Shown here: positions 1 to 8,329 of the stretch, one piece after another
How positions within the stretch are numbered: the stretch's first letter is position 1
Layout of the letters: each line of letters starts with the position of its first letter
Virus record (IMG/VR): IMGVR_UViG_3300022200_000036
DNA length: 20,000 nucleotides
Reading direction: 5' to 3' (one strand)
Source: an uncultured virus (IMG/VR IMGVR_UViG_3300022200_000036)
Lineage: Duplodnaviria; Heunggongvirae; Uroviricota; Caudoviricetes
Position numbers and translations under genes: made by a program
Notes under the pieces: generated by a model
Told to the model about the DNA's origin: nothing
Seen by the model: the letters and a program-made list of their open reading frames with translations, nothing else
The model's database searches: none

Positions 1-515
1 GCAGGTCGGTCTTCACCTGGAACTGCTGCACTTCGTTGCCGTACTCACCAGTGGTGTAGGAGATACGACCTTGGGAATCCTTGGTCTTACCACCAGCAAA
101 GTAGTAGCCACCCTGGGAGGTAGAAGCAGCACCATTAGCTTCTGCTTTGGCAAGTTCGTCGATGAACACGCGATCACGCCAGCGGCGATAGTCGTCAAGC
201 AGCGTCAGGCTACCGATCGACTGGTGGAACATATTCAGGTTACCGGTGTCCAGCAGAAGACGCTGGGCGGTAATCAGGGTCTCGCGCGCAATCTTGAAGG
301 TCGAAGGCTGGGTCGGATCACCCGGATCTGCAGGACCAGTATATTCCTTAAGCACCACCAGGACTTTCTCCTTGGTGATGTTACGGCTGTTAGCGGTACC
401 GATGGTTTGATCGGCAATACGCTCACGGCTGTCCTTAGTACCAGGGGTACCCCAGAACTTATAGCGGTCTAACTGGACGGTTTGACCAGGCTGACGAGTG
501 AAGTCGTGGACGACA
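1..515 (-). CDS. Probable major capsid protein, exon 2 (continues past the left edge of the window)
   Basis: Stop-free minus frame from 515 to 1, absent from the ORF track: (V)VVHDFTRQPGQTVQLDRYKFWGTPGTKDSRERIADQTIGTANSRNITKEKVLVVLKEYTGP...FQVKTDL. Codon use is strongly biased (CGT, GGT, ACC, CTG, AAG), as in a highly expressed gene. It lies downstream of TerL-portal-scaffold and joins exon 1 in frame after intron removal. Capsid identity is inferred from synteny and a coat-like G-x-T-V-x-x-x-R motif. Confidence 0.75.
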
Positions 516-1622
516 CGTGCTAGCATGTTCTCCATGCAGCTCCCTAGGTTTCTCATCCCTAGGGCACTGACTATATCTTGCTCCCAAAAATGACACTTTC
601 TCAAGAAACAGTTGAAAACTTTGCTTCTCGTATGTCAGATGTAGATGCGTCCAAAGAATTAGGAGTCTGTATGGTCACATTCTACAAAGCTAGAAAGTTG
701 TTTGGCATTCCCTCGTACTTCGAGGCAACCGGAAAACGTAAAACCAAAACAGGAAAAATTTACTCGTTTATGGAATACAACGACCGATATTTTCAGTCAA
801 TTGATTCTCCTGATAAGGCATACTTTTTAGGCTTGCTTGCTTCGGATGGGAACATAAGTCCTCGTTTAACAGCTGCACGTATTGCATTAAAAGCAGATGA
901 TGCAGATATCCTTGAAAAATTTAGATCTTTCTTGGGGGCAGGCGCACCTGCTTTGAAAGATAAGGTTCCAACGCTTAAAGGAATTAAAGGTAATCCCCAA
1001 AAGATTTTGGTGCTTAGCAGAAAAGTTTTAGTAAATGATTTGATGAAATTAGGTATAACTCCTAACAAATCACATACTCTAAAAATTAACTGCGATCTCA
1101 AGGACTTTAAAAAGGACTTTATCAGGGGCGTCTGGGACGGAGATGGATCAGTAACAGAACGAAGGTTTAAAGTAACCACTGCCTCTGAATGTTTTGCCTT
1201 TCAGCTTCAAGGCTGGATAGAAGAAATAAGCGGGGTTATTCTTCCTGTTAAATCAGAAGTAACCAAAAACGATAAAAACTTGTTCCATCTTCCTGGTTAC
1301 ATTCGAGACGCAAATGCAATACATGCAATTTACGGAGATTCCAACCTTTATATCGAACGTAAGTTTAAAAACTATGTTCGTTATTGGGAGCCCCGGCGCT
1401 AATGGGTTTCATAATCCGTTCTGGATTGTATACCCTAGTCGATGAACCTTCTTCTTATTCCTAAGAAGCTTGGCTGCTGATTGCCCCATGAGCTTGATCT
1501 TTTTAACCATTCACGCTTACTGTTACCAGTTACGTTGTAGGGACCAAACCTTAAGGTGAAGGGTTTCCAGCAATTCACCGGGTGTTCACTTTTTGATTAC
1601 TCAAAAAGGCGGCTGTCAATCA
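516..1622 (-). mobile_element. Group I self-splicing intron (1107 nt, IA-like with P7.1 extension) in the capsid gene
   Basis: Minus-strand elements: P1 CGGU|UG paired with CAGCCG, U.G at the 5' splice site; P2 CUUUUUGA-GUAA-UCAAAAAG (1589-1608); P3 CCCGGUG (1576-1582)/CGCCGGG (1392-1398); P AAUUGCUGGAAA (1564-1575); Q AAUCAGCAG (1474-1482); R UCAUCGACUA (1436-1445); P8 GCUCCCAA (1384-1391)/UUGGGAGC (580-587); S AAGAUAUAGUC (569-579); P9 CCCUAGG/CCUAGGG (542-564); terminal G at 516; P10 UGACA paired with exon-2 UGUCG. Splicing restores ...EPV-VVHDF. Confidence 0.95.
590..1402 (+). CDS. Double-motif LAGLIDADG homing endonuclease with N-terminal HTH-like segment, antisense within the intron P8 loop
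   Basis: Motifs KAYFLGLLASDGNI and DFIRGVWDGDGSV, plus N-terminal SDVDASKELGVCMVTFYKARKLFGI (HTH-like). AT-rich relative to the flanking exons. ATG at 590 is preferred over the in-frame TTG at 578, which lies inside S/P8. Confidence 0.9.
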   Translation: MTLSQETVENFASRMSDVDASKELGVCMVTFYKARKLFGIPSYFEATGKRKTKTGKIYSFMEYNDRYFQSIDSPDKAYFLGLLASDGNISPRLTAARIALKADDADILEKFRSFLGAGAPALKDKVPTLKGIKGNPQKILVLSRKVLVNDLMKLGITPNKSHTLKINCDLKDFKKDFIRGVWDGDGSVTERRFKVTTASECFAFQLQGWIEEISGVILPVKSEVTKNDKNLFHLPGYIRDANAIHAIYGDSNLYIERKFKNYVRYWEPRR

Positions 1623-1714
1623 ACCGGTTCCACGGCCATTTCCGCGATGTATGCGGGGTGAGGGCGGTATAGCTCTGCCCCTAAAATCTTAGGGAAATCA
1701 TTGTCAATAAACAC
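1623..1714 (-). CDS. Probable major capsid protein, exon 1
   Basis: GTG start at 1714 with GGAGG (1724-1728) upstream. Reads MFIDNDFPKILGAELYRPHPAYIAEMAVEP(V) and ends at the U of the P1 U.G pair. Unspliced, it hits TGA shortly inside the intron. Confidence 0.85.
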
Positions 1715-1785
1715 TTAGATTATCCTCCAGTGTCAGTGTTTTTATCGGGTGAAAGATAAAGACACGTGTGTCTTATCTAACACAA

Positions 1786-1794
1786 ATTTTAGCA
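1786..1794 (-). promoter_or_regulatory. Extended -10 promoter candidate (TGcTAAAAT) for the capsid gene
   Basis: Minus strand reads CCTGCTAAAAT. The same CCTGCTA context occurs upstream of the portal gene (CCTGCTAGTAT, 5157-5167). Confidence 0.5.
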
Positions 1795-1811
1795 GGTAGT
1801 GAACTTATGTG

Positions 1812-2384
1812 TTACACGTACTGCATAGTTGTCATACCAAGACCTCTTGGGTTTTGGGAGACATAGGGCGATTCCGGATCAATGGCACCACCTTGCTGGA
1901 AGCCTGGTACACCCATGGCGCCAATACCTGCTCCTAATGCAAGGCCGCCTGCGCCTGCGGCTGCCGCAGAGGCAGGAACTAAGCCAGCCGCAAAAGCAGG
2001 GTTAGCAGCAGAGGCAAGATTTGCAGGTAAAGCCAATAAACCTGTACGTGCAATATTACCAACGGTTTGAGGTGAATATAAAGTAGCAGCTTGACCGCGA
2101 CTCATGTATTCAGGACTGTTGACAATTCCTTGCTCAATACGTTGCCTTGCAGAACGTTTAGTTTTGCCTAAAGGTCTTTCCAAACCTTTCTCAACAAGAT
2201 TGGGAAGAACGTCGGCATACTTACCTGCTAGTGCGGTCGCACCACGGAGACCGCCATATGCACCAAGGCCACCAAGACCTGCCGCAAGTGCAGCCGAACC
2301 CGGATTTTCACCTTGAGAAAGGGCGTACCCGCCTATAGCTAAGCCAGCCGCAGCAGGTACACCGTATTTAAGAGCGCCACGCAT
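1812..2384 (-). CDS. Ala/Gly-rich hypothetical protein with hydrophobic segments (putative virion or membrane-associated)
   Basis: 190-aa ORF between scaffold and capsid genes. GGAG lies upstream at the end of the previous gene. Hydrophobic glycine-zipper-like stretches near the N- and C-termini. Confidence 0.7.
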   Translation of the reverse strand: MRGALKYGVPAAAGLAIGGYALSQGENPGSAALAAGLGGLGAYGGLRGATALAGKYADVLPNLVEKGLERPLGKTKRSARQRIEQGIVNSPEYMSRGQAATLYSPQTVGNIARTGLLALPANLASAANPAFAAGLVPASAAAAGAGGLALGAGIGAMGVPGFQQGGAIDPESPYVSQNPRGLGMTTMQYV

Positions 2385-2388
2385 GGCA

Positions 2389-3387
2389 TTACTCCATTAC
2401 AAACAGTTTGTTTGCAACGACTTGAGGTTGAGCTTGGTTCAAGATGCGCCAGGCTTGACTGGGATCCACATCCATCTGTTGCTTGAAGCTGCCCCAGAAG
2501 TTTTCAGGCTGCTGAGGAGCAGCGGCAGCAGGAGGAGCAGGGAACTGACCTAATACCCGCTGAACAGGAGTGGTGGGATAACCGAAGGTGCCAAGTTCAG
2601 CCTCATTCTCATACACAGGATACGGACCTTCTGGACCGAAGAACTTCAGCGTGTAATCACTGAGAACATCGGGATTGGTCAGAATCTCGTTATACGCAAG
2701 GTTCTCCTGGTGCTCGTTAACCGAAAATTCGGCATAACGATCGAGAACTTCTTGTGCTTTATGGCCCCAAGCGACGGCGCTATCCAGCATATTTTCAAGC
2801 TGGAGGGCATAGTTGTTGAGTATTGCAGGGGAGTTCCAGCCGTACGCGTCAATTACGTTTCGACTTTCCTCGTTTAGATGCAGGTAATCGGCGATTGCGC
2901 TCTGCACTTCCATCCGCAGCTCGTTGGCTACTCCCGGAGAGGATGCCGCTAAGGAGATTAGGGAAGAGCTGGGCGAGTAAGCCTGGTTGGGTGACCAGGT
3001 CTGCGGAGCCAATTGTTGCGTAGCTGGGTTGCTGTACAGCTGGCCGTAATTGGCTGGAGCGTACTGCGTCGTCTGTGATGGTTGACCCTGGAACGGGGAT
3101 TGAACTGGACTGCTCAACAGGTTCACTACCTTGTTGAACGCCGATTCCCATGGATTGCTCGCCGCCTCCGGTTGGGATTGGGGGGCGTACTGAATAGGGG
3201 CTGATTGGTAGCTGAGGGCCGCCTGAGGCACCGCTTGGGGGTAGCTGGTACCCACCTGATATTGGACTGGACTGCCCACTGGAGCTTGGGGTGCCGGAGC
3301 TGCTGCCGGAACCACGTAATTGCTTGGAGCCACCGCCACTGGTGCTTGGCTCGTCTGTGGGATCGATTGGACGGTAGCGTCCTGCAT
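2389..3387 (-). CDS. Putative capsid scaffolding/assembly protein
   Basis: 332 aa, AAGGAG 7 nt upstream of the ATG. P/Q/A-rich disordered N-half and helical acidic C-half. Position between portal and capsid genes; function inferred from synteny. Confidence 0.6.
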   Translation of the reverse strand: MQDATVQSIPQTSQAPVAVAPSNYVVPAAAPAPQAPVGSPVQYQVGTSYPQAVPQAALSYQSAPIQYAPQSQPEAASNPWESAFNKVVNLLSSPVQSPFQGQPSQTTQYAPANYGQLYSNPATQQLAPQTWSPNQAYSPSSSLISLAASSPGVANELRMEVQSAIADYLHLNEESRNVIDAYGWNSPAILNNYALQLENMLDSAVAWGHKAQEVLDRYAEFSVNEHQENLAYNEILTNPDVLSDYTLKFFGPEGPYPVYENEAELGTFGYPTTPVQRVLGQFPAPPAAAAPQQPENFWGSFKQQMDVDPSQAWRILNQAQPQVVANKLFVME

Positions 3388-5134
3388 AACTCATCTCCTT
3401 TTGTAGAGCTTCTAAAGTTCGATACAGATATGGAGTTAGATCCAATCTTGGGTCCGCAGCCATCGGAAGATCCGGTGCTTGCGGGTGGGGAGTCTGCATC
3501 ATGCCCCCCACTAACCTGGCGAACTGAGAGTAAGCACCCTGTAATTCGTTCACCATCCTGAAAGGGAACCCAGATAACATCTCGGCCCGTTCCTCATCCG
3601 TCTTAGACGGGAAGAGGTATTTCAATGCTTCAATGCTATCAACACCTAATTCTTGCAGATTTCGTACCACGATTGAGTTATTGAGAATATCTTGGGTTGA
3701 ATCTTCGTAAACAGGACCCATCCAACGCCACAAAATAGTGACATCACCATCTGGAATAAGACCAATAACCTTGGGTGGAATTTGTTGTGTCTCCACGCAA
3801 GCCATCATCAATCGTTTGAGCATGTCATTGTATTGCTTCATCGCGTCTTCATAGGCAGCTTCTTCTTCCGGTGAAGCCTCATCTGGTAGATCTACGGGCT
3901 TCTCAAGTCCTGCTGCCATTGCAAGTGTAGTCTTGAACAATTGTTCTTCTTGATAAATAATTAGTTCAAGACAACGACAGATGCCGTGGGTGTAAATGGC
4001 ATTTGCTTTTTTCTTCGATGTCGCGGCAACGCGGCCAAAGAGAGATTTGTATTCAGTTGCGGTAACACCAGCAGAGATGGAAAGCTCATCAACGCCACCA
4101 AGAGCAGTGCGAATTTCTTCACGATACTGACGTGCAAAAGCATTTTGGTCGCCAGTGATGGCGTCTGGAACAATGTAGCCAACACGGTCGTTTGGTTCTA
4201 AATTTGCAATGACACGTGGTACACGGATCTGACCGTCCATGCCACGACTGACTGGATCAGATTTAAACATCGACCTACTCATCGGTGATGGGCTTGTGAA
4301 TCCAGAGTTTGCTGCGATTGATGGACGCTGAATTGTGGTGTCACCACCGGCTTCCATCAGGTCTGTCTTGGGACGAGAAGACAATAATGTTGGGTTACCA
4401 AAGAATGTAATGTTCTTGCGCATGGTGCGCATCAAGTCATCATGCGTGCAGATGTGATTAGCAAGGGCATCAAACTCACCAGTACCTTCATTTGAAAACC
4501 CTTGAGTATTGTTAATGATCTCAACGCATGGAATAAAACCAAGGCTATTTTTTAACTGCTTGGTATTACCCGTAAGCGCATAAGTTGGCATGTCAAAATT
4601 TAATTCAGAATCTGAATGCGTCTCTTCGATTTCTTTTGCTTTAATTGCCAAGCGAATGTAACGTTTGGCTCCAGGACTATAGCTACTTTGATTGCCTGTA
4701 ATATTTGTTGTATTAATTTGATCGCCAAAACCATTACCTTTACGCACCTTGTAGCTATAGATGATTACAACCTCATCCAGCTCGCCATCAACGTTGTAAT
4801 AGGCACGATATTCATGATCACGAAAGTAGTAAAGCCTATAGCTTTGTTTCGTGGGACGGATGTAAAAAAGACCTTTGCCATCACACAAAAAATACTCCCA
4901 GATCGAATCTAGGCGTGTATCCATTTTGTTGTACTTGAGCACACGGTCGATAAAGTCCTTGCGTTGTGCACCGAAGTTGTCTTGAGATGGAAAGAACTCA
5001 ACTCCTTGGCGAATGCCAAAAAGTTTCATCTGAGCAATATGCGACGCAACAATGCCCGTATCGACAACAATATCGCTGTCCTTATCCAGGTAAGCGTTAA
5101 TAATCTCTTGTAAACGGGCTTTAGCGTCGGCCAT
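2849..5134 (-). CDS. Putative portal protein with a long low-complexity C-terminal extension overlapping the next gene
   Basis: 761-aa ORF downstream of TerL and upstream of scaffold/capsid. The first ~580 aa look like a helical portal core (GFIPCVEIIN, EIRTALGGVDE, ELGVDSIEALKYLFP). The last ~180 aa are S/G/P-rich and overlap 2389..3387. Confidence 0.7.
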   Translation of the reverse strand: MADAKARLQEIINAYLDKDSDIVVDTGIVASHIAQMKLFGIRQGVEFFPSQDNFGAQRKDFIDRVLKYNKMDTRLDSIWEYFLCDGKGLFYIRPTKQSYRLYYFRDHEYRAYYNVDGELDEVVIIYSYKVRKGNGFGDQINTTNITGNQSSYSPGAKRYIRLAIKAKEIEETHSDSELNFDMPTYALTGNTKQLKNSLGFIPCVEIINNTQGFSNEGTGEFDALANHICTHDDLMRTMRKNITFFGNPTLLSSRPKTDLMEAGGDTTIQRPSIAANSGFTSPSPMSRSMFKSDPVSRGMDGQIRVPRVIANLEPNDRVGYIVPDAITGDQNAFARQYREEIRTALGGVDELSISAGVTATEYKSLFGRVAATSKKKANAIYTHGICRCLELIIYQEEQLFKTTLAMAAGLEKPVDLPDEASPEEEAAYEDAMKQYNDMLKRLMMACVETQQIPPKVIGLIPDGDVTILWRWMGPVYEDSTQDILNNSIVVRNLQELGVDSIEALKYLFPSKTDEERAEMLSGFPFRMVNELQGAYSQFARLVGGMMQTPHPQAPDLPMAADPRLDLTPYLYRTLEALQKEMSYAGRYRPIDPTDEPSTSGGGSKQLRGSGSSSGTPSSSGQSSPISGGYQLPPSGASGGPQLPISPYSVRPPIPTGGGEQSMGIGVQQGSEPVEQSSSIPVPGSTITDDAVRSSQLRPAVQQPSYATIGSADLVTQPGLLAQLFPNLLSGILSGSSQRAADGSAERNRRLPASKRGKSKRN

Positions 5135-5791: not shown

Positions 5792-8329
5792 CTAGTAATC
5801 AACCTGTAGTTTTCCTTTGCGCATCAAACCGTTAATGACCCAAACCAAGCTATCGACGCAATCGTCGTGACTGCTAATACCAAAGTTCGTCAGCTCTTCG
5901 AACATTGCCGTGAAGTTACGGAATCGATTGAAAATTATCTTACGATCTTCAAAAAGACCCATGCAACCACGGAAACGCGCAAGTTTATCGGCGCGGAATC
6001 CTTTGACTGCGTGCCAATTTAAGTTATAAAGATTTTCATTGTTTAAACAAACACGCTTGAAGTCTGATTCAAGAGAAGCCTGGTATTGCACAGCTTCTGA
6101 ATAAATATCGCATGTGGAGTAGGTCGGATAGTAATTTCCGTTTTCGTCACGTCCCACGATAGACCAATCATTAAGAAGTTCTTTAAGGGCATCCAGCTTT
6201 TCAAGGTTGCCCATGACACGCAACCGGCGGTAATCAATCACGTGAATCTGATCGCCAATTCGACCGGCAAGCGTCATTACCGTGTAATCATTCTTTTCTT
6301 TTGTACCAGCAGATAGGTCGACTCCCACAGCAATCGTATCGAACTCAGTGGCGATCTCGGCTTTTATAATAAGCTCTGGTGCCAAGGACAGTTCATTCTG
6401 TCTGATCACCTGATTCATGTACTGGAACGAGAAGGCAATAGGTGCTTGCCTCTTCTTTTCTTTCAGGTAATCCAGTGACCACATCTCAGGCCAATACGAG
6501 ACTTCGTCCCCTGTTTTAGGGTCGTTCAAGATGGCGGACAACACAATTTGAATCCAGTTGTTTTGTGGGTTGAATGTTGTGGAGTGAATATCGTCATGTC
6601 TGAAGCGCGTACCAAGACAGATGGCACGTCCACCCTCAAACATTGTTGGTGCAATCACCGCATTCCAGTTCTCCTGCATCTGTTTACGGATGTCAGGGTT
6701 AGAAATATCTGCAGCTGACTTGATCGCGTCATCAATTATGCAATTCAAAACATTTAAACCATTAGCGATAAAGTTGTGGTCTAAATGCTCTACTTCTAGG
6801 TCATAGACGAACTCCTCTCTTTCGCTAAGAAACTCAACTCTGGAAACGGGCTCGGGCGACCAGCCTTGTCCGTTACCTGATGATGCGCCACATGACACTG
6901 GCGACATAATGTAATCAAATTTTGCGGGATATTGTTTGTCTTTTTGTGGTCGATATGATGTACGCAAAGATTTGTCCTGGACGTTCCGTTGCTTAATAAC
7001 AACTTCCGCTCCTTTGTATTGCATCCAACGCAAGTAAAATTGTCCCTTTCCAAAATCAACGGTCTCATTTCCTGAAAATCGTTGGAACTGCAGCCGTGTT
7101 GGTAATTGCTGTTCCCAGTCTTTTTCATTCGCCGTGAATGAAGGTGATTCGCACACTCCCGCGAGCAACAAGTTGTTTTGTGACTGACTGGTCGAAATAA
7201 TGCTTGACAAACTGGACAAGATTTTTCCTGAAGCTTTCGTGATGCTGCTCCAGTACACTGATGGCTGCAACAAATCACTAATGGATTTTTTGAAAGACGT
7301 TGGGATAAGCGATTTGAGGTTACGCAAAACTGTTGGCCACACTGCGGACAAGTTGGCCTTACCTGAAAAGCCTGTGTTGTACGAAAACAAGCCTCGCAGA
7401 TACGTTGTGTTTTTTTCTTTGGCCCCCCGCAGGAAAGACAGTTCTTTATCTTGTCTCCTGTTGGATGCTCTGACAAGGACATCCCCTGCACTAAGATCTC
7501 CCGCCCTCTTTTGTTTTCCGTCTTGCGTAACGAAAGGGTGCTCGGGAGTTGCTGAAATACGATTTCCAGAGGCTGTTGTAATGTCAACAATGCCTTTGGT
7601 AAAACGCCTTGTAACTGCCCCCACGTTGCTCCAATCAATTTGATTTGTTTCTGAGTTTCTAACAGCAATTTGGTATTGGTCTGGATCTTCATAAATAGCT
7701 TTAATTGGCACTTGACCAACGTTGGTCGTAACTAGTGTATCACCTGTCAAGCACAAGTGCGAGCGCTTAGAAGTCACGGAGCCCTTGAGGCCAGCAGCGC
7801 AGAGTGTGAATTGTTCTTCACCAGTGGTGTCAATACCTGCAAACCTGTGATCAATAGACCAATACTCATTGCTGGTAACGTTCTTGAGTAGCCGTACCTT
7901 TGGAAAAACTTCTTGGTAGCGCTTGCTTTCAATGATTCGTTTAATCGTTGCAGACTTAGATCGAGCAATATCGACTGTGTAGGAAAGATAAAGAATTTGT
8001 AGCGGCATTTTTGCCATGGTGTGAACACCAATAGCCCATGCCGTAAACAACCCAAGGACGGTACTTTTGGCGGAGCCCCTCGGCGCCAAGAGATCAACAT
8101 TTGGACCGGCAATCTTTATCAAACAATTACTATCATTGCCGGTAACAAACTGTCTATGCCATTCTTTGTGGTGAGCGGCTGGTGGTTTATCTGCTACATA
8201 CTCACAAAAGAACCCAAAATCTTCCCGTGCTTTCTCCAGGGATTCAAGATTTCGTGGAACTCGAATTTGTTGCCTGCGTGCAGCAGCCTGTGCGTTACGT
8301 CGGTAAGCAAGGTGTTGATAAGCAGGCAT
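5792..8329 (-). CDS. terL: Terminase large subunit precursor containing an intein (845 aa; 508 aa after splicing)
   Basis: Walker A-like LLAPRGSAKST; Walker B restored across the splice junction (SHL|CIIDD); coupling motif CLGTRF; RNase H-like nuclease residues VGVDLS and HDDCVDS. Confidence 0.93.
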   Translation of the reverse strand: MPAYQHLAYRRNAQAAARRQQIRVPRNLESLEKAREDFGFFCEYVADKPPAAHHKEWHRQFVTGNDSNCLIKIAGPNVDLLAPRGSAKSTVLGLFTAWAIGVHTMAKMPLQILYLSYTVDIARSKSATIKRIIESKRYQEVFPKVRLLKNVTSNEYWSIDHRFAGIDTTGEEQFTLCAAGLKGSVTSKRSHLCLTGDTLVTTNVGQVPIKAIYEDPDQYQIAVRNSETNQIDWSNVGAVTRRFTKGIVDITTASGNRISATPEHPFVTQDGKQKRAGDLSAGDVLVRASNRRQDKELSFLRGAKEKNTTYLRGLFSYNTGFSGKANLSAVWPTVLRNLKSLIPTSFKKSISDLLQPSVYWSSITKASGKILSSLSSIISTSQSQNNLLLAGVCESPSFTANEKDWEQQLPTRLQFQRFSGNETVDFGKGQFYLRWMQYKGAEVVIKQRNVQDKSLRTSYRPQKDKQYPAKFDYIMSPVSCGASSGNGQGWSPEPVSRVEFLSEREEFVYDLEVEHLDHNFIANGLNVLNCIIDDAIKSAADISNPDIRKQMQENWNAVIAPTMFEGGRAICLGTRFRHDDIHSTTFNPQNNWIQIVLSAILNDPKTGDEVSYWPEMWSLDYLKEKKRQAPIAFSFQYMNQVIRQNELSLAPELIIKAEIATEFDTIAVGVDLSAGTKEKNDYTVMTLAGRIGDQIHVIDYRRLRVMGNLEKLDALKELLNDWSIVGRDENGNYYPTYSTCDIYSEAVQYQASLESDFKRVCLNNENLYNLNWHAVKGFRADKLARFRGCMGLFEDRKIIFNRFRNFTAMFEELTNFGISSHDDCVDSLVWVINGLMRKGKLQVDY
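6743..7753 (-). mobile_element. Intein (337 aa, TerL residues 193-529)
   Basis: Block A CLTGDTLV; block B ISATPEHPF (TxxH); KRAGDLSAGDVL; block F FVYDLEVEHLDHNFIANG; C-terminal LN followed by +1 Cys. Confidence 0.93.
6796..7491 (-). CDS. Zinc-finger HNH endonuclease encoded in the +1 frame inside the intein
   Basis: Cys clusters CLSC..CEAC, CPQC..CCSHQC and CPVC..CCSREC, then an HNH domain ILERDNFTCVGC...LCVHHIDHKKTNNIPQNLITLCRQCHVAHH. GTG at 7491 has GGGAG 6 nt upstream; an alternative ATG is at 7482. Confidence 0.88.
   Translation of the reverse strand: MQGMSLSEHPTGDKIKNCLSCGGPKKKTQRICEACFRTTQAFQVRPTCPQCGQQFCVTSNRLSQRLSKNPLVICCSHQCTGAASRKLQEKSCPVCQALFRPVSHKTTCCSRECANHLHSRRMKKTGNSNYQHGCSSNDFQEMRPLILERDNFTCVGCNTKERKLLLSNGTSRTNLCVHHIDHKKTNNIPQNLITLCRQCHVAHHQVTDKAGRPSPFPELSFLAKERSSSMT

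Follow-up and report, generated by a model that had tools for sequence, protein, structure and literature searches.

We analysed a 20,000-nt stretch of DNA (the window) from an uncultured virus of the Caudoviricetes, IMG/VR record IMGVR_UViG_3300022200_000036. Near its left end, the major head protein gene of an S-EIV1-like cyanophage is, very probably, interrupted by a mobile group I intron that carries a LAGLIDADG homing endonuclease gene (HEG) in its P8 loop, in antisense orientation. The window has its long open reading frames (ORFs) all on the minus strand. Among named genomes, that of Synechococcus phage S-EIV1, from an arctic lake, comes closest, with 78% DNA identity across the capsid exons. 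The nearest virus record (G001) has no match to positions 1-2400 and is hence uninformative for the intron region. The locus reads as follows:

1623-1714, minus strand: major head protein exon 1, with a GTG start at 1714-1712, 30 codons and 2 nt of a split Val codon
516-1622, minus strand: group I intron, 1,107 nt, matching Rfam RF00028, with a U before the 5' splice site and a terminal G at 516
1-515, minus strand: major head protein exon 2, continuing beyond the window edge
590-1402, plus strand: LAGLIDADG homing endonuclease gene, 270 aa, with its ATG at 590 and TAA at 1400-1402, antisense to the intron

The translation of exon 1 is 100% identical to the N-terminus of an intron-less, 387-aa homologue in another contig (L015). 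We name the host gene as that of the major head protein because this full-length homologue matches phrog_1357, 'major head protein' (E 9.6e-17), and the capsid label given by the first-pass annotation, made from the sequence letters alone, thus holds. A Pfam search of the window's exon 2 by itself gave no match. Exon 1 ends at 1623 with ...GAACCGGT, exon 2 begins at 515 with TGTCGTCCAC, and the exon-exon junction expected after splicing reads, on the minus strand, GAACCGGT/TGTCGTCC (a slash marks the junction throughout). At the protein level, excision gives ...AEMAVEPV/VVHDFTRQ..., in which EPVVVHDF is the same as in the intron-less S-EIV1 gene and in 78 intron-less loci. Unspliced RNA read in the frame of exon 1 meets a stop two codons into the intron.

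The group I assignment is borne out by a covariance-model search, in which RF00028 matches positions 1279-1631 of the minus strand with 54.1 bits against a gathering threshold of 50 (E 1.9e-11); it is the only gathering-level Rfam match in the window. The alignment is good for the 5' half of the intron, covering P1, P2, P3, P4-P6, the 5' strand of P7, and P3', whereas the model pushes P8 and P9 into the ORF. Reading the minus strand puts the real 3' elements at 587-516: the 3' strand of P8, the S element with the 3' strand of P7, P9, a further hairpin and the terminal G. The ribozyme is built from these parts, for which conservation refers to the nine aligned introns described below:

1610-1626, minus strand: P1, exon CGGU plus intron UG (1626-1621) paired with CAGCCG (1615-1610), with a U.G wobble at the splice site
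1589-1608, minus strand: P2 hairpin with a GUAA loop, compensatory changes in 3 of 8 pairs
1436-1582, minus strand: 5' strand of P3 (1582-1576), P4-P6, and 5' strand of P7, GACUA (1440-1436), with an extended P5, P6a, and the P, Q and R elements
1403-1435, minus strand: extra hairpin between P7 and P3', P7.1/P7.2-like, 4 of 11 pairs compensatory
1392-1398, minus strand: P3', CGCCGGG, on the plus strand the codons Pro-Arg-Arg (CCC CGG CGC); alignment columns 238-244, invariant in 9/9
1384-1390, minus strand: 5' strand of P8, CUCCCAA, on the plus strand within the codons Tyr-Trp-Glu
581-587, minus strand: 3' strand of P8, UUGGGAG, pairing with CUCCCAA (1390-1384)
569-579, minus strand: S element AAGAUAUAGUC plus the 3' strand of P7, UAGUC (573-569), UAGUC invariant in 9/9
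516-564, minus strand: P9 hairpin (564-558 with 548-542), P9.1-type hairpin (537-523) and the terminal ACG

Relatives were gathered through a protein search, which returned five viral contigs, and a search with a 19-nt core element, which returned three more. One contig (L006), whose HEG is 100% identical to that of the window, was excluded from later counts, and the eight remaining sequences, the window included, represent about five lineages. In 8/8 the intron sits at the same codon, measures 1,107-1,128 nt and bears the HEG opposite to the capsid exons. A shorter intron of 288 nt, without an ORF, occupies this site in contig L122; it shares the core, and its P8 is a short hairpin.

For covariation we aligned the 5' parts of nine introns, the eight that bear the HEG and the ORF-less one of L122. 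Their consensus fold shows the expected helices, with 99.2% of cells paired. Compensatory changes are found in 22 of 70 pairs, compared with 11.5 ± 2.0 in shuffles (0 of 500 reach 22), and the number falls to 0-4 on sliding the partners. Helices 3-10 (region 1436-1582) hold 15 pairs with such changes, P9 has 7 further ones, and the P9.1-type hairpin differs in sequence between lineages with its pairing kept. P1 is paired in all nine (alignment columns 9-14 with 21-26), each time with U.G at columns 12/23; P3, P4 and P7 do not vary. In P8 the outermost C-G pair is replaced by U-A in L148 and L122, a synonymous substitution of GAA for GAG on the coding strand. Several of the invariant pairs are G.U and would be A.C on the opposite strand, so the folded RNA is the capsid-sense strand. 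That strand is not stop-free across the HEG, with 11, 17 and 12 stops in its three frames. Furthermore, the extra hairpin between P7 and P3' suggests that the intron belongs to subgroup IA.

The HEG begins 2 nt after the 3' strand of P8 (581-587), occupies the whole P8 loop (L8) and then exits across the 5' strand of P8 and P3'. Its closing TGG GAG CCC CGG CGC TAA complements the P8 5' strand, P3' and the next base; because the frame crosses these elements, the last six to seven codons share nucleotides with the ribozyme core. The arrangement described in the first-pass annotation, with core elements and host gene on the minus strand and an intact, double-motif ORF of 270 aa on the plus strand within the P8 loop, is therefore confirmed at its coordinates, and the RF00028 alignment and the sequence agree with its further observation that WEPRR-stop is the complement of P8 5' and P3'. 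Within the predicted protein we distinguish three regions:

590-730, plus strand: N-terminal three-helix domain, helix-turn-helix (HTH)-like, with model helices at residues 5-12, 17-24 and 28-38 and a predicted local distance difference test score (pLDDT) of about 88-90
821-859, plus strand: LAGLIDADG motif 1 (YFLGLLASDGNIS), D86 and G87 invariant
1118-1150, plus strand: LAGLIDADG motif 2 (FIRGVWDGDGS), D183, G184, D185 and G186 invariant

The protein has matches to Pfam LAGLIDADG_3 (E 4.2e-9) and, among the PHROGs, to phrog_4645, annotated as 'endonuclease' (E 4.6e-37); both motifs, with their acidic residues (D86; D183/D185), are invariant in 8/8 sequences. In an AlphaFold model made from eight homologues, residues 1-47 form a confident, HTH-like three-helix bundle; this domain has no Pfam match in the window protein, and HTH Pfam domains are present in distant homologues. 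Foldseek searches with the model recover I-DmoI, intein endonuclease domains (TliVMA), I-Tsp061I and I-SceI, with 41 PDB chains at E of 0.001 or lower. The fold of I-DmoI, in which the order alpha-beta-beta-alpha-beta-beta-alpha occurs in two copies, is matched with a template modelling (TM) score of 0.54-0.59 (target-normalised) and E of about 5e-5. Like I-DmoI and the VMA intein endonuclease domains (PDB 2vs7, 4unb and 7qsu; Foldseek E 5e-5 to 5e-6, probability 1.00; phmmer E 0.004 to 7qsu), the window protein has the monomeric two-motif LAGLIDADG fold, but sequence identity to them is 14-21% and the extra N-terminal helical domain is absent from I-DmoI. On sequence and model, we predict that the protein is a homing endonuclease of the monomeric, double-motif LAGLIDADG type, with an HTH-like domain at its N-terminus. 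Its gene has a G+C content of 38.7%, compared with 55% for exon 2, a contrast that would fit a foreign origin.

The HEG ORFs are intact in all eight sequences, encode 270-277 aa and all end in WEPRR-stop, with the ATG 0-5 nt from the P8 stem in every lineage. Those of the seven other viral contigs are 58-98% identical to that of the window. Ratios of nonsynonymous to synonymous substitution rates (dN/dS) could be computed for 21 of the 28 pairs, the other seven being too diverged, and range from 0.06 to 0.20, or from 0.11 to 0.17 where dS is unsaturated (below 1.1). Selection acts on both the intron RNA and the HEG protein. A large protein collection contains 46 clusters with 54% or more identity to the HEG, the next relatives reaching only 32-34%. 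Their C-terminal tails read WEPRR in 32 clusters, WESRR in 6, WDPRR in 5, and WEPLR and WEFRR in 1 each, with 1 truncated; the tail W-[ED]-x-x-R is thus found in 45/46. As this conserved tail is the footprint of the overlap with the core, the antisense layout is old and stable.

The intron is rare at its site. Among the capsid loci examined, the best 80 of at least 598 relatives, it is absent from 78, and the other 2 begin too close to the site. All intron-bearing alleles have the junction CCGGT/TGT, which P1 requires, and share the junction codons CCG GTT, whereas only 2/79 intron-less alleles carry CCGGTTGT at the junction and 2/79 these codons. Over 402-1883, a contig from run X19 shows no difference from the window, against 24 differences in 1-401 and 17 in 1884-2298; an identical tract in a diverged background fits the pattern that homing with co-conversion would leave. 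Given the 22 compensatory pairs, the low dN/dS, the existence of an ORF-less version and the 78 of 80 capsid genes without intron, we conclude that the element is mobile and long-lived.

On the basis of these data, we propose that this site first held an ORF-less intron and that an endonuclease gene inserted in reverse into its short P8 hairpin, the frame closing on a stop that the complement of the ribozyme core already contained. The enzyme would act in mixed infections, cleaving the conserved EPVVVHD site of capsid alleles that lack the intron, and repair from intron-bearing genomes would copy in the intron together with adjoining exon sequence. The ribozyme, read on the capsid-sense (minus) strand, would splice itself from the late capsid mRNA, and ribosomes entering unspliced capsid RNA would halt two codons into the intron.

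How unusual the orientation is can be judged from related elements. The first-pass annotation held phage intron ORFs to be mostly of the GIY-YIG or HNH type, but related LAGLIDADG genes are common: a tblastn search with the HEG protein has matches in 158 phage records. In ten phage records with HEG homologues, orientation was judged from annotated neighbours; nine of them are annotated, and in those nine the homologue shares its strand with the gene that it interrupts or adjoins. In four of these records the homologue splits one gene, namely a RecD-like helicase, a recombinase and, twice, a DNA polymerase. RF00028 matches one of the ten loci (cr116_1, sense, 92 bits). We also surveyed 80 viral loci that share the 19-nt core element, scanning every ORF of 140 aa or more within about 1.3-1.9 kb, 286 in total. 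ORFs with an endonuclease domain run in the intron's direction at 25 loci (HNH, LAGLIDADG_2 and GIY-YIG), the sense set being counted by proximity to the core element, and in the opposite direction at 7. Five of the 7 opposite-strand loci belong to the window's HEG family, and the other two, the HNH_3 ORFs of L122 and L170, are not intron-borne but located upstream of the capsid gene. With 25 sense loci against 7 opposite-strand ones, 2 of these outside introns, sense orientation is the rule and the window's HEG family is the exception within its own intron group.

An antisense HEG in a phage capsid intron is nevertheless a kind already known, since the capsid intron of phage LittleE has been published (PMC3706429), and the premise of the first-pass annotation that such genes are known mainly from nuclear rDNA introns is outdated by that paper. 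Splicing of the intron in LittleE major capsid gene 13 was shown by reverse transcription PCR and N-terminal sequencing (Pope 2013, PMC3706429), whereas splicing of the window intron is predicted from its sequence; LittleE gene 14 lies within that intron, on the bottom strand, and is LAGLIDADG-like (PMC3706429). Both systems combine a group I-type intron in a phage capsid gene with a LAGLIDADG-type HEG in the opposite direction, in an intron that is optional among related phages. They differ in host phage, capsid family and insertion site. The LittleE product, gp14, is given as 177 aa, I-CreI-like and with an HNH-related C-terminus, as opposed to the 270-aa, double-motif protein of the window with its N-terminal HTH-like domain, which suggests, going by the paper's description, a different LAGLIDADG subtype. 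The descriptions of LittleE available in PMC3706429 mention no overlap of ORF and ribozyme core. According to a 2025 paper (PMC11855218), translation of the LittleE intron ORF is still debated, with leaderless initiation a likely answer. Our literature searches, mostly without subscription journals, returned no bacterial or phage antisense intron HEG besides that of LittleE.

Two other systems help to place the element. The antisense HEG I-DirII of the Didymium iridis intron Dir.S956-2 has an RNA polymerase II promoter of its own (PMC3073962, PMC3679873), but it is a His-Cys-box-type gene of a nuclear rDNA intron; it has a poly(A) tail as well as a spliceosomal intron, and its setting is eukaryotic, with transcription and translation uncoupled. 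The td intron of phage T4 with I-TevI and the other phage introns with sense-strand HEGs (PMC2988022, PMC3073962) are, like the window element, mobile group I introns in phage protein genes with the HEG in a peripheral loop and with HEG expression separated from that of the host gene. Unlike the window HEG, those of T4 are sense-strand genes of GIY-YIG or HNH type. In T4 ribosomes thus move on the ribozyme RNA, whereas in the window translation and folding would take place on different RNAs.

The window locus provides a well-supported natural case of a backwards HEG in a phage capsid intron, and offers for comparison an ORF-less sister intron, eight diverged full copies and about 46 clusters with the core-dictated five-residue tail. 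It is suited to asking how an antisense intron gene is transcribed and translated in bacteria, as is also asked for LittleE, and whether a HEG on the opposite strand relieves the conflict between translation and ribozyme folding.

As the HEG is antisense to the capsid mRNA, its protein needs a separate plus-strand transcript, as had already been reasoned in the first-pass annotation. Because the HEG fills L8, exon 2 and the complement of P8'-P7'-P9 are the only places left for its signals. Our best guess is that a weak promoter lies opposite the 3' part of the intron, which would yield an mRNA with little or no leader. The candidate is:

550-579, plus strand: hypothetical promoter-like pair, TTCTCA (550-555), an 18-nt spacer and TATCTT (574-579), with 8 of 12 consensus positions

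Several observations weigh against the account given so far. Among the related introns, those of L003, L004 and L005 score 43.7-46 bits, under the RF00028 gathering threshold, with 55 bits for L002 and 54.1 for L006. The overall pLDDT of the HEG model is 70.9, only moderate confidence. The identical tract of X19 would also be explained by any recent recombination, not just by homing. As for expression, no Shine-Dalgarno sequence is present before the HEG ATG, and a sigma-70-like promoter scan over 2,400 nt, with a cut-off of 9/12, found no plus-strand site (2 sites at 9/12 or better compared with 3.1 ± 1.7 in shuffles). The four runs compared with the window consist of contigs, which carry no strand information; three of them, RNA libraries, contain pieces of the HEG region (X2, 652-864; X4, 1100-1369; X1, 1090-1240 and 1363-1513), which may be DNA carry-over or excised intron RNA. 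A joint of 511 to 1769 (side 27) was considered as a splice product and rejected, its loose end being a diverged, intron-less exon 1.

Whether a promoter built into the ribozyme drives the HEG, with the complement of the L9 loop (TTCTCA) as its -35, the complement of the S element (TATCTT) as its -10 and a leaderless or near-leaderless mRNA, is on balance doubtful. The pattern TT[CGT]TCA, 18 nt, TATCTT is found in 6/8 sequences with 8-9 of 12 consensus positions, and its -10 ends 7-10 nt before the ATG in each, 10 nt in the window. Furthermore, the missing Shine-Dalgarno sequence and the closeness of the ATG to the P8 stem leave only the 3' part of the ribozyme or exon 2 for any signal, and leaderless initiation has been proposed for the LittleE intron ORF (PMC11855218). 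However, a score of 8/12 is within chance, no site here reaching 9/12, and the -10 loses its terminal T in L125 (TATCAC) and L148 (TATCTC). The ribozyme counterparts of both hexamers are also conserved in the ORF-less L122 intron, so their conservation says nothing about a promoter. The consensus used is sigma-70-like, which may not be that of the polymerase that transcribes this phage. Of the -10-like element pointed out in the first-pass annotation, the hexamer itself and its distance from the ATG stand, whereas promoter activity is hypothetical, and so are the separate timing and the interference with splicing that were proposed with it.

A broader form of this idea, which we consider unlikely, is dual coding in the 3' part of the intron: from a promoter formed by the strand opposite the L9 loop and the S element, a leaderless HEG mRNA would start at the P8 stem, and the ORF would borrow its last codons and its stop from the complement of P8 and P3'. 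If true, a backwards HEG would be expressed without one added regulatory base and without ribosomes crossing a folding RNA, and dual coding could explain the persistence of the antisense layout in capsid introns.

A different function of the protein also has to be weighed. It might act mainly as a maturase that aids folding of the intron, or as a DNA-binding regulator, and no longer as a homing nuclease. LAGLIDADG maturases exist in bacterial introns, for example in Thermotoga neapolitana (PMC3984707), the bI3 maturase and WhiA are among the fold matches of the HEG model, and the strong purifying selection on the HEG shows function, not which function. Against this, the acidic residues of both motifs are kept in all eight sequences, the intron is rare and patchy in distribution, and its identical tract in the diverged capsid background of X19 fits recent movement. 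We regard loss of nuclease function as improbable and retain the homing endonuclease. Finally, an assembly artefact with an inverted segment, or a dead element in a broken capsid gene, is scarcely credible even for a sequence that derives from an assembly, as the same layout recurs in seven other contigs (HEG 58-98% identical) and in an independent-run contig colinear over 1-1749, the HEG runs in frame into the complement of the core at its end, a fusion that no inversion artefact would create, compensatory changes maintain the ribozyme helices, and the exons join into an intact reading frame.

The abundant S-EIV1-like cyanophages have introns at several positions in their capsid genes, and capsid genes of the same family bear introns elsewhere in L122, L127, L168 and L170. 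L122 has two ORF-less insertions, one at the site described here and one after exon 2 residue 22. In L127 and L168, one insertion, which contains a sense LAGLIDADG_2 gene, lies about 12 codons upstream, and another follows exon 2 residue 17; in L170 an intron with a sense LAGLIDADG_2 gene lies further downstream. The N-terminal 60 codons of the S-EIV1-type capsid gene look like an intron hot spot. The exact 19-nt P element is found in at least 120 viral contigs. Where Pfam recognises the flanks of loci with this element (L097-L176), they are mostly capsid proteins (SU10_MCP, Phage_capsid_3 and Phage_capsid_4), others being Hsp70, ThyX and an AAA ATPase, and a single intron family seems to have a preference for the capsid gene across unrelated phages. 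In L126, which has another intron of this family, the distance from P to S is 1,005 nt, and a 301-aa sense ORF (locus 1350-2252) without Pfam match may be an unrecognised intron-encoded protein.

The annotation of the host gene in the reference genome deserves a remark. In the S-EIV1 record (KJ410740), a 'hypothetical protein' (AHV82227.1; locus 2907-3668) is annotated opposite to all of its neighbours and exactly over the major head protein gene, and the true gene on the other strand appears to have been left unannotated. Upstream of the capsid start in the window, a promoter-like site (GTAACA, 18 nt, TAAAAT, with a TG before it; 1815-1786, minus strand) is followed by a palindrome at about 1755-1785 that is conserved with S-EIV1; the region 1745-1815 (minus strand) may hold a late capsid promoter plus an operator or processing hairpin.

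Further along the minus strand, a gene at 2849-5134 encodes a portal-like virion protein of 761 aa (phrog_20475, E 1e-283). It overlaps the next ORF (2389-3387, 332 aa) by about 540 nt in a different frame, and the latter probably starts at an ATG further in, or else part of the low-complexity tail of the portal-like ORF is non-coding. The gene at 5792-8329 (minus strand) encodes the large terminase subunit (phrog_38, E 7e-73) and contains an intein (Pfam Intein_splicing at residues 205-525, E 5e-16), which separates an N-terminal terminase part (phrog_4758) from the Terminase_6C nuclease domain. This intein is a second selfish element within the same packaging and head module as the capsid intron.

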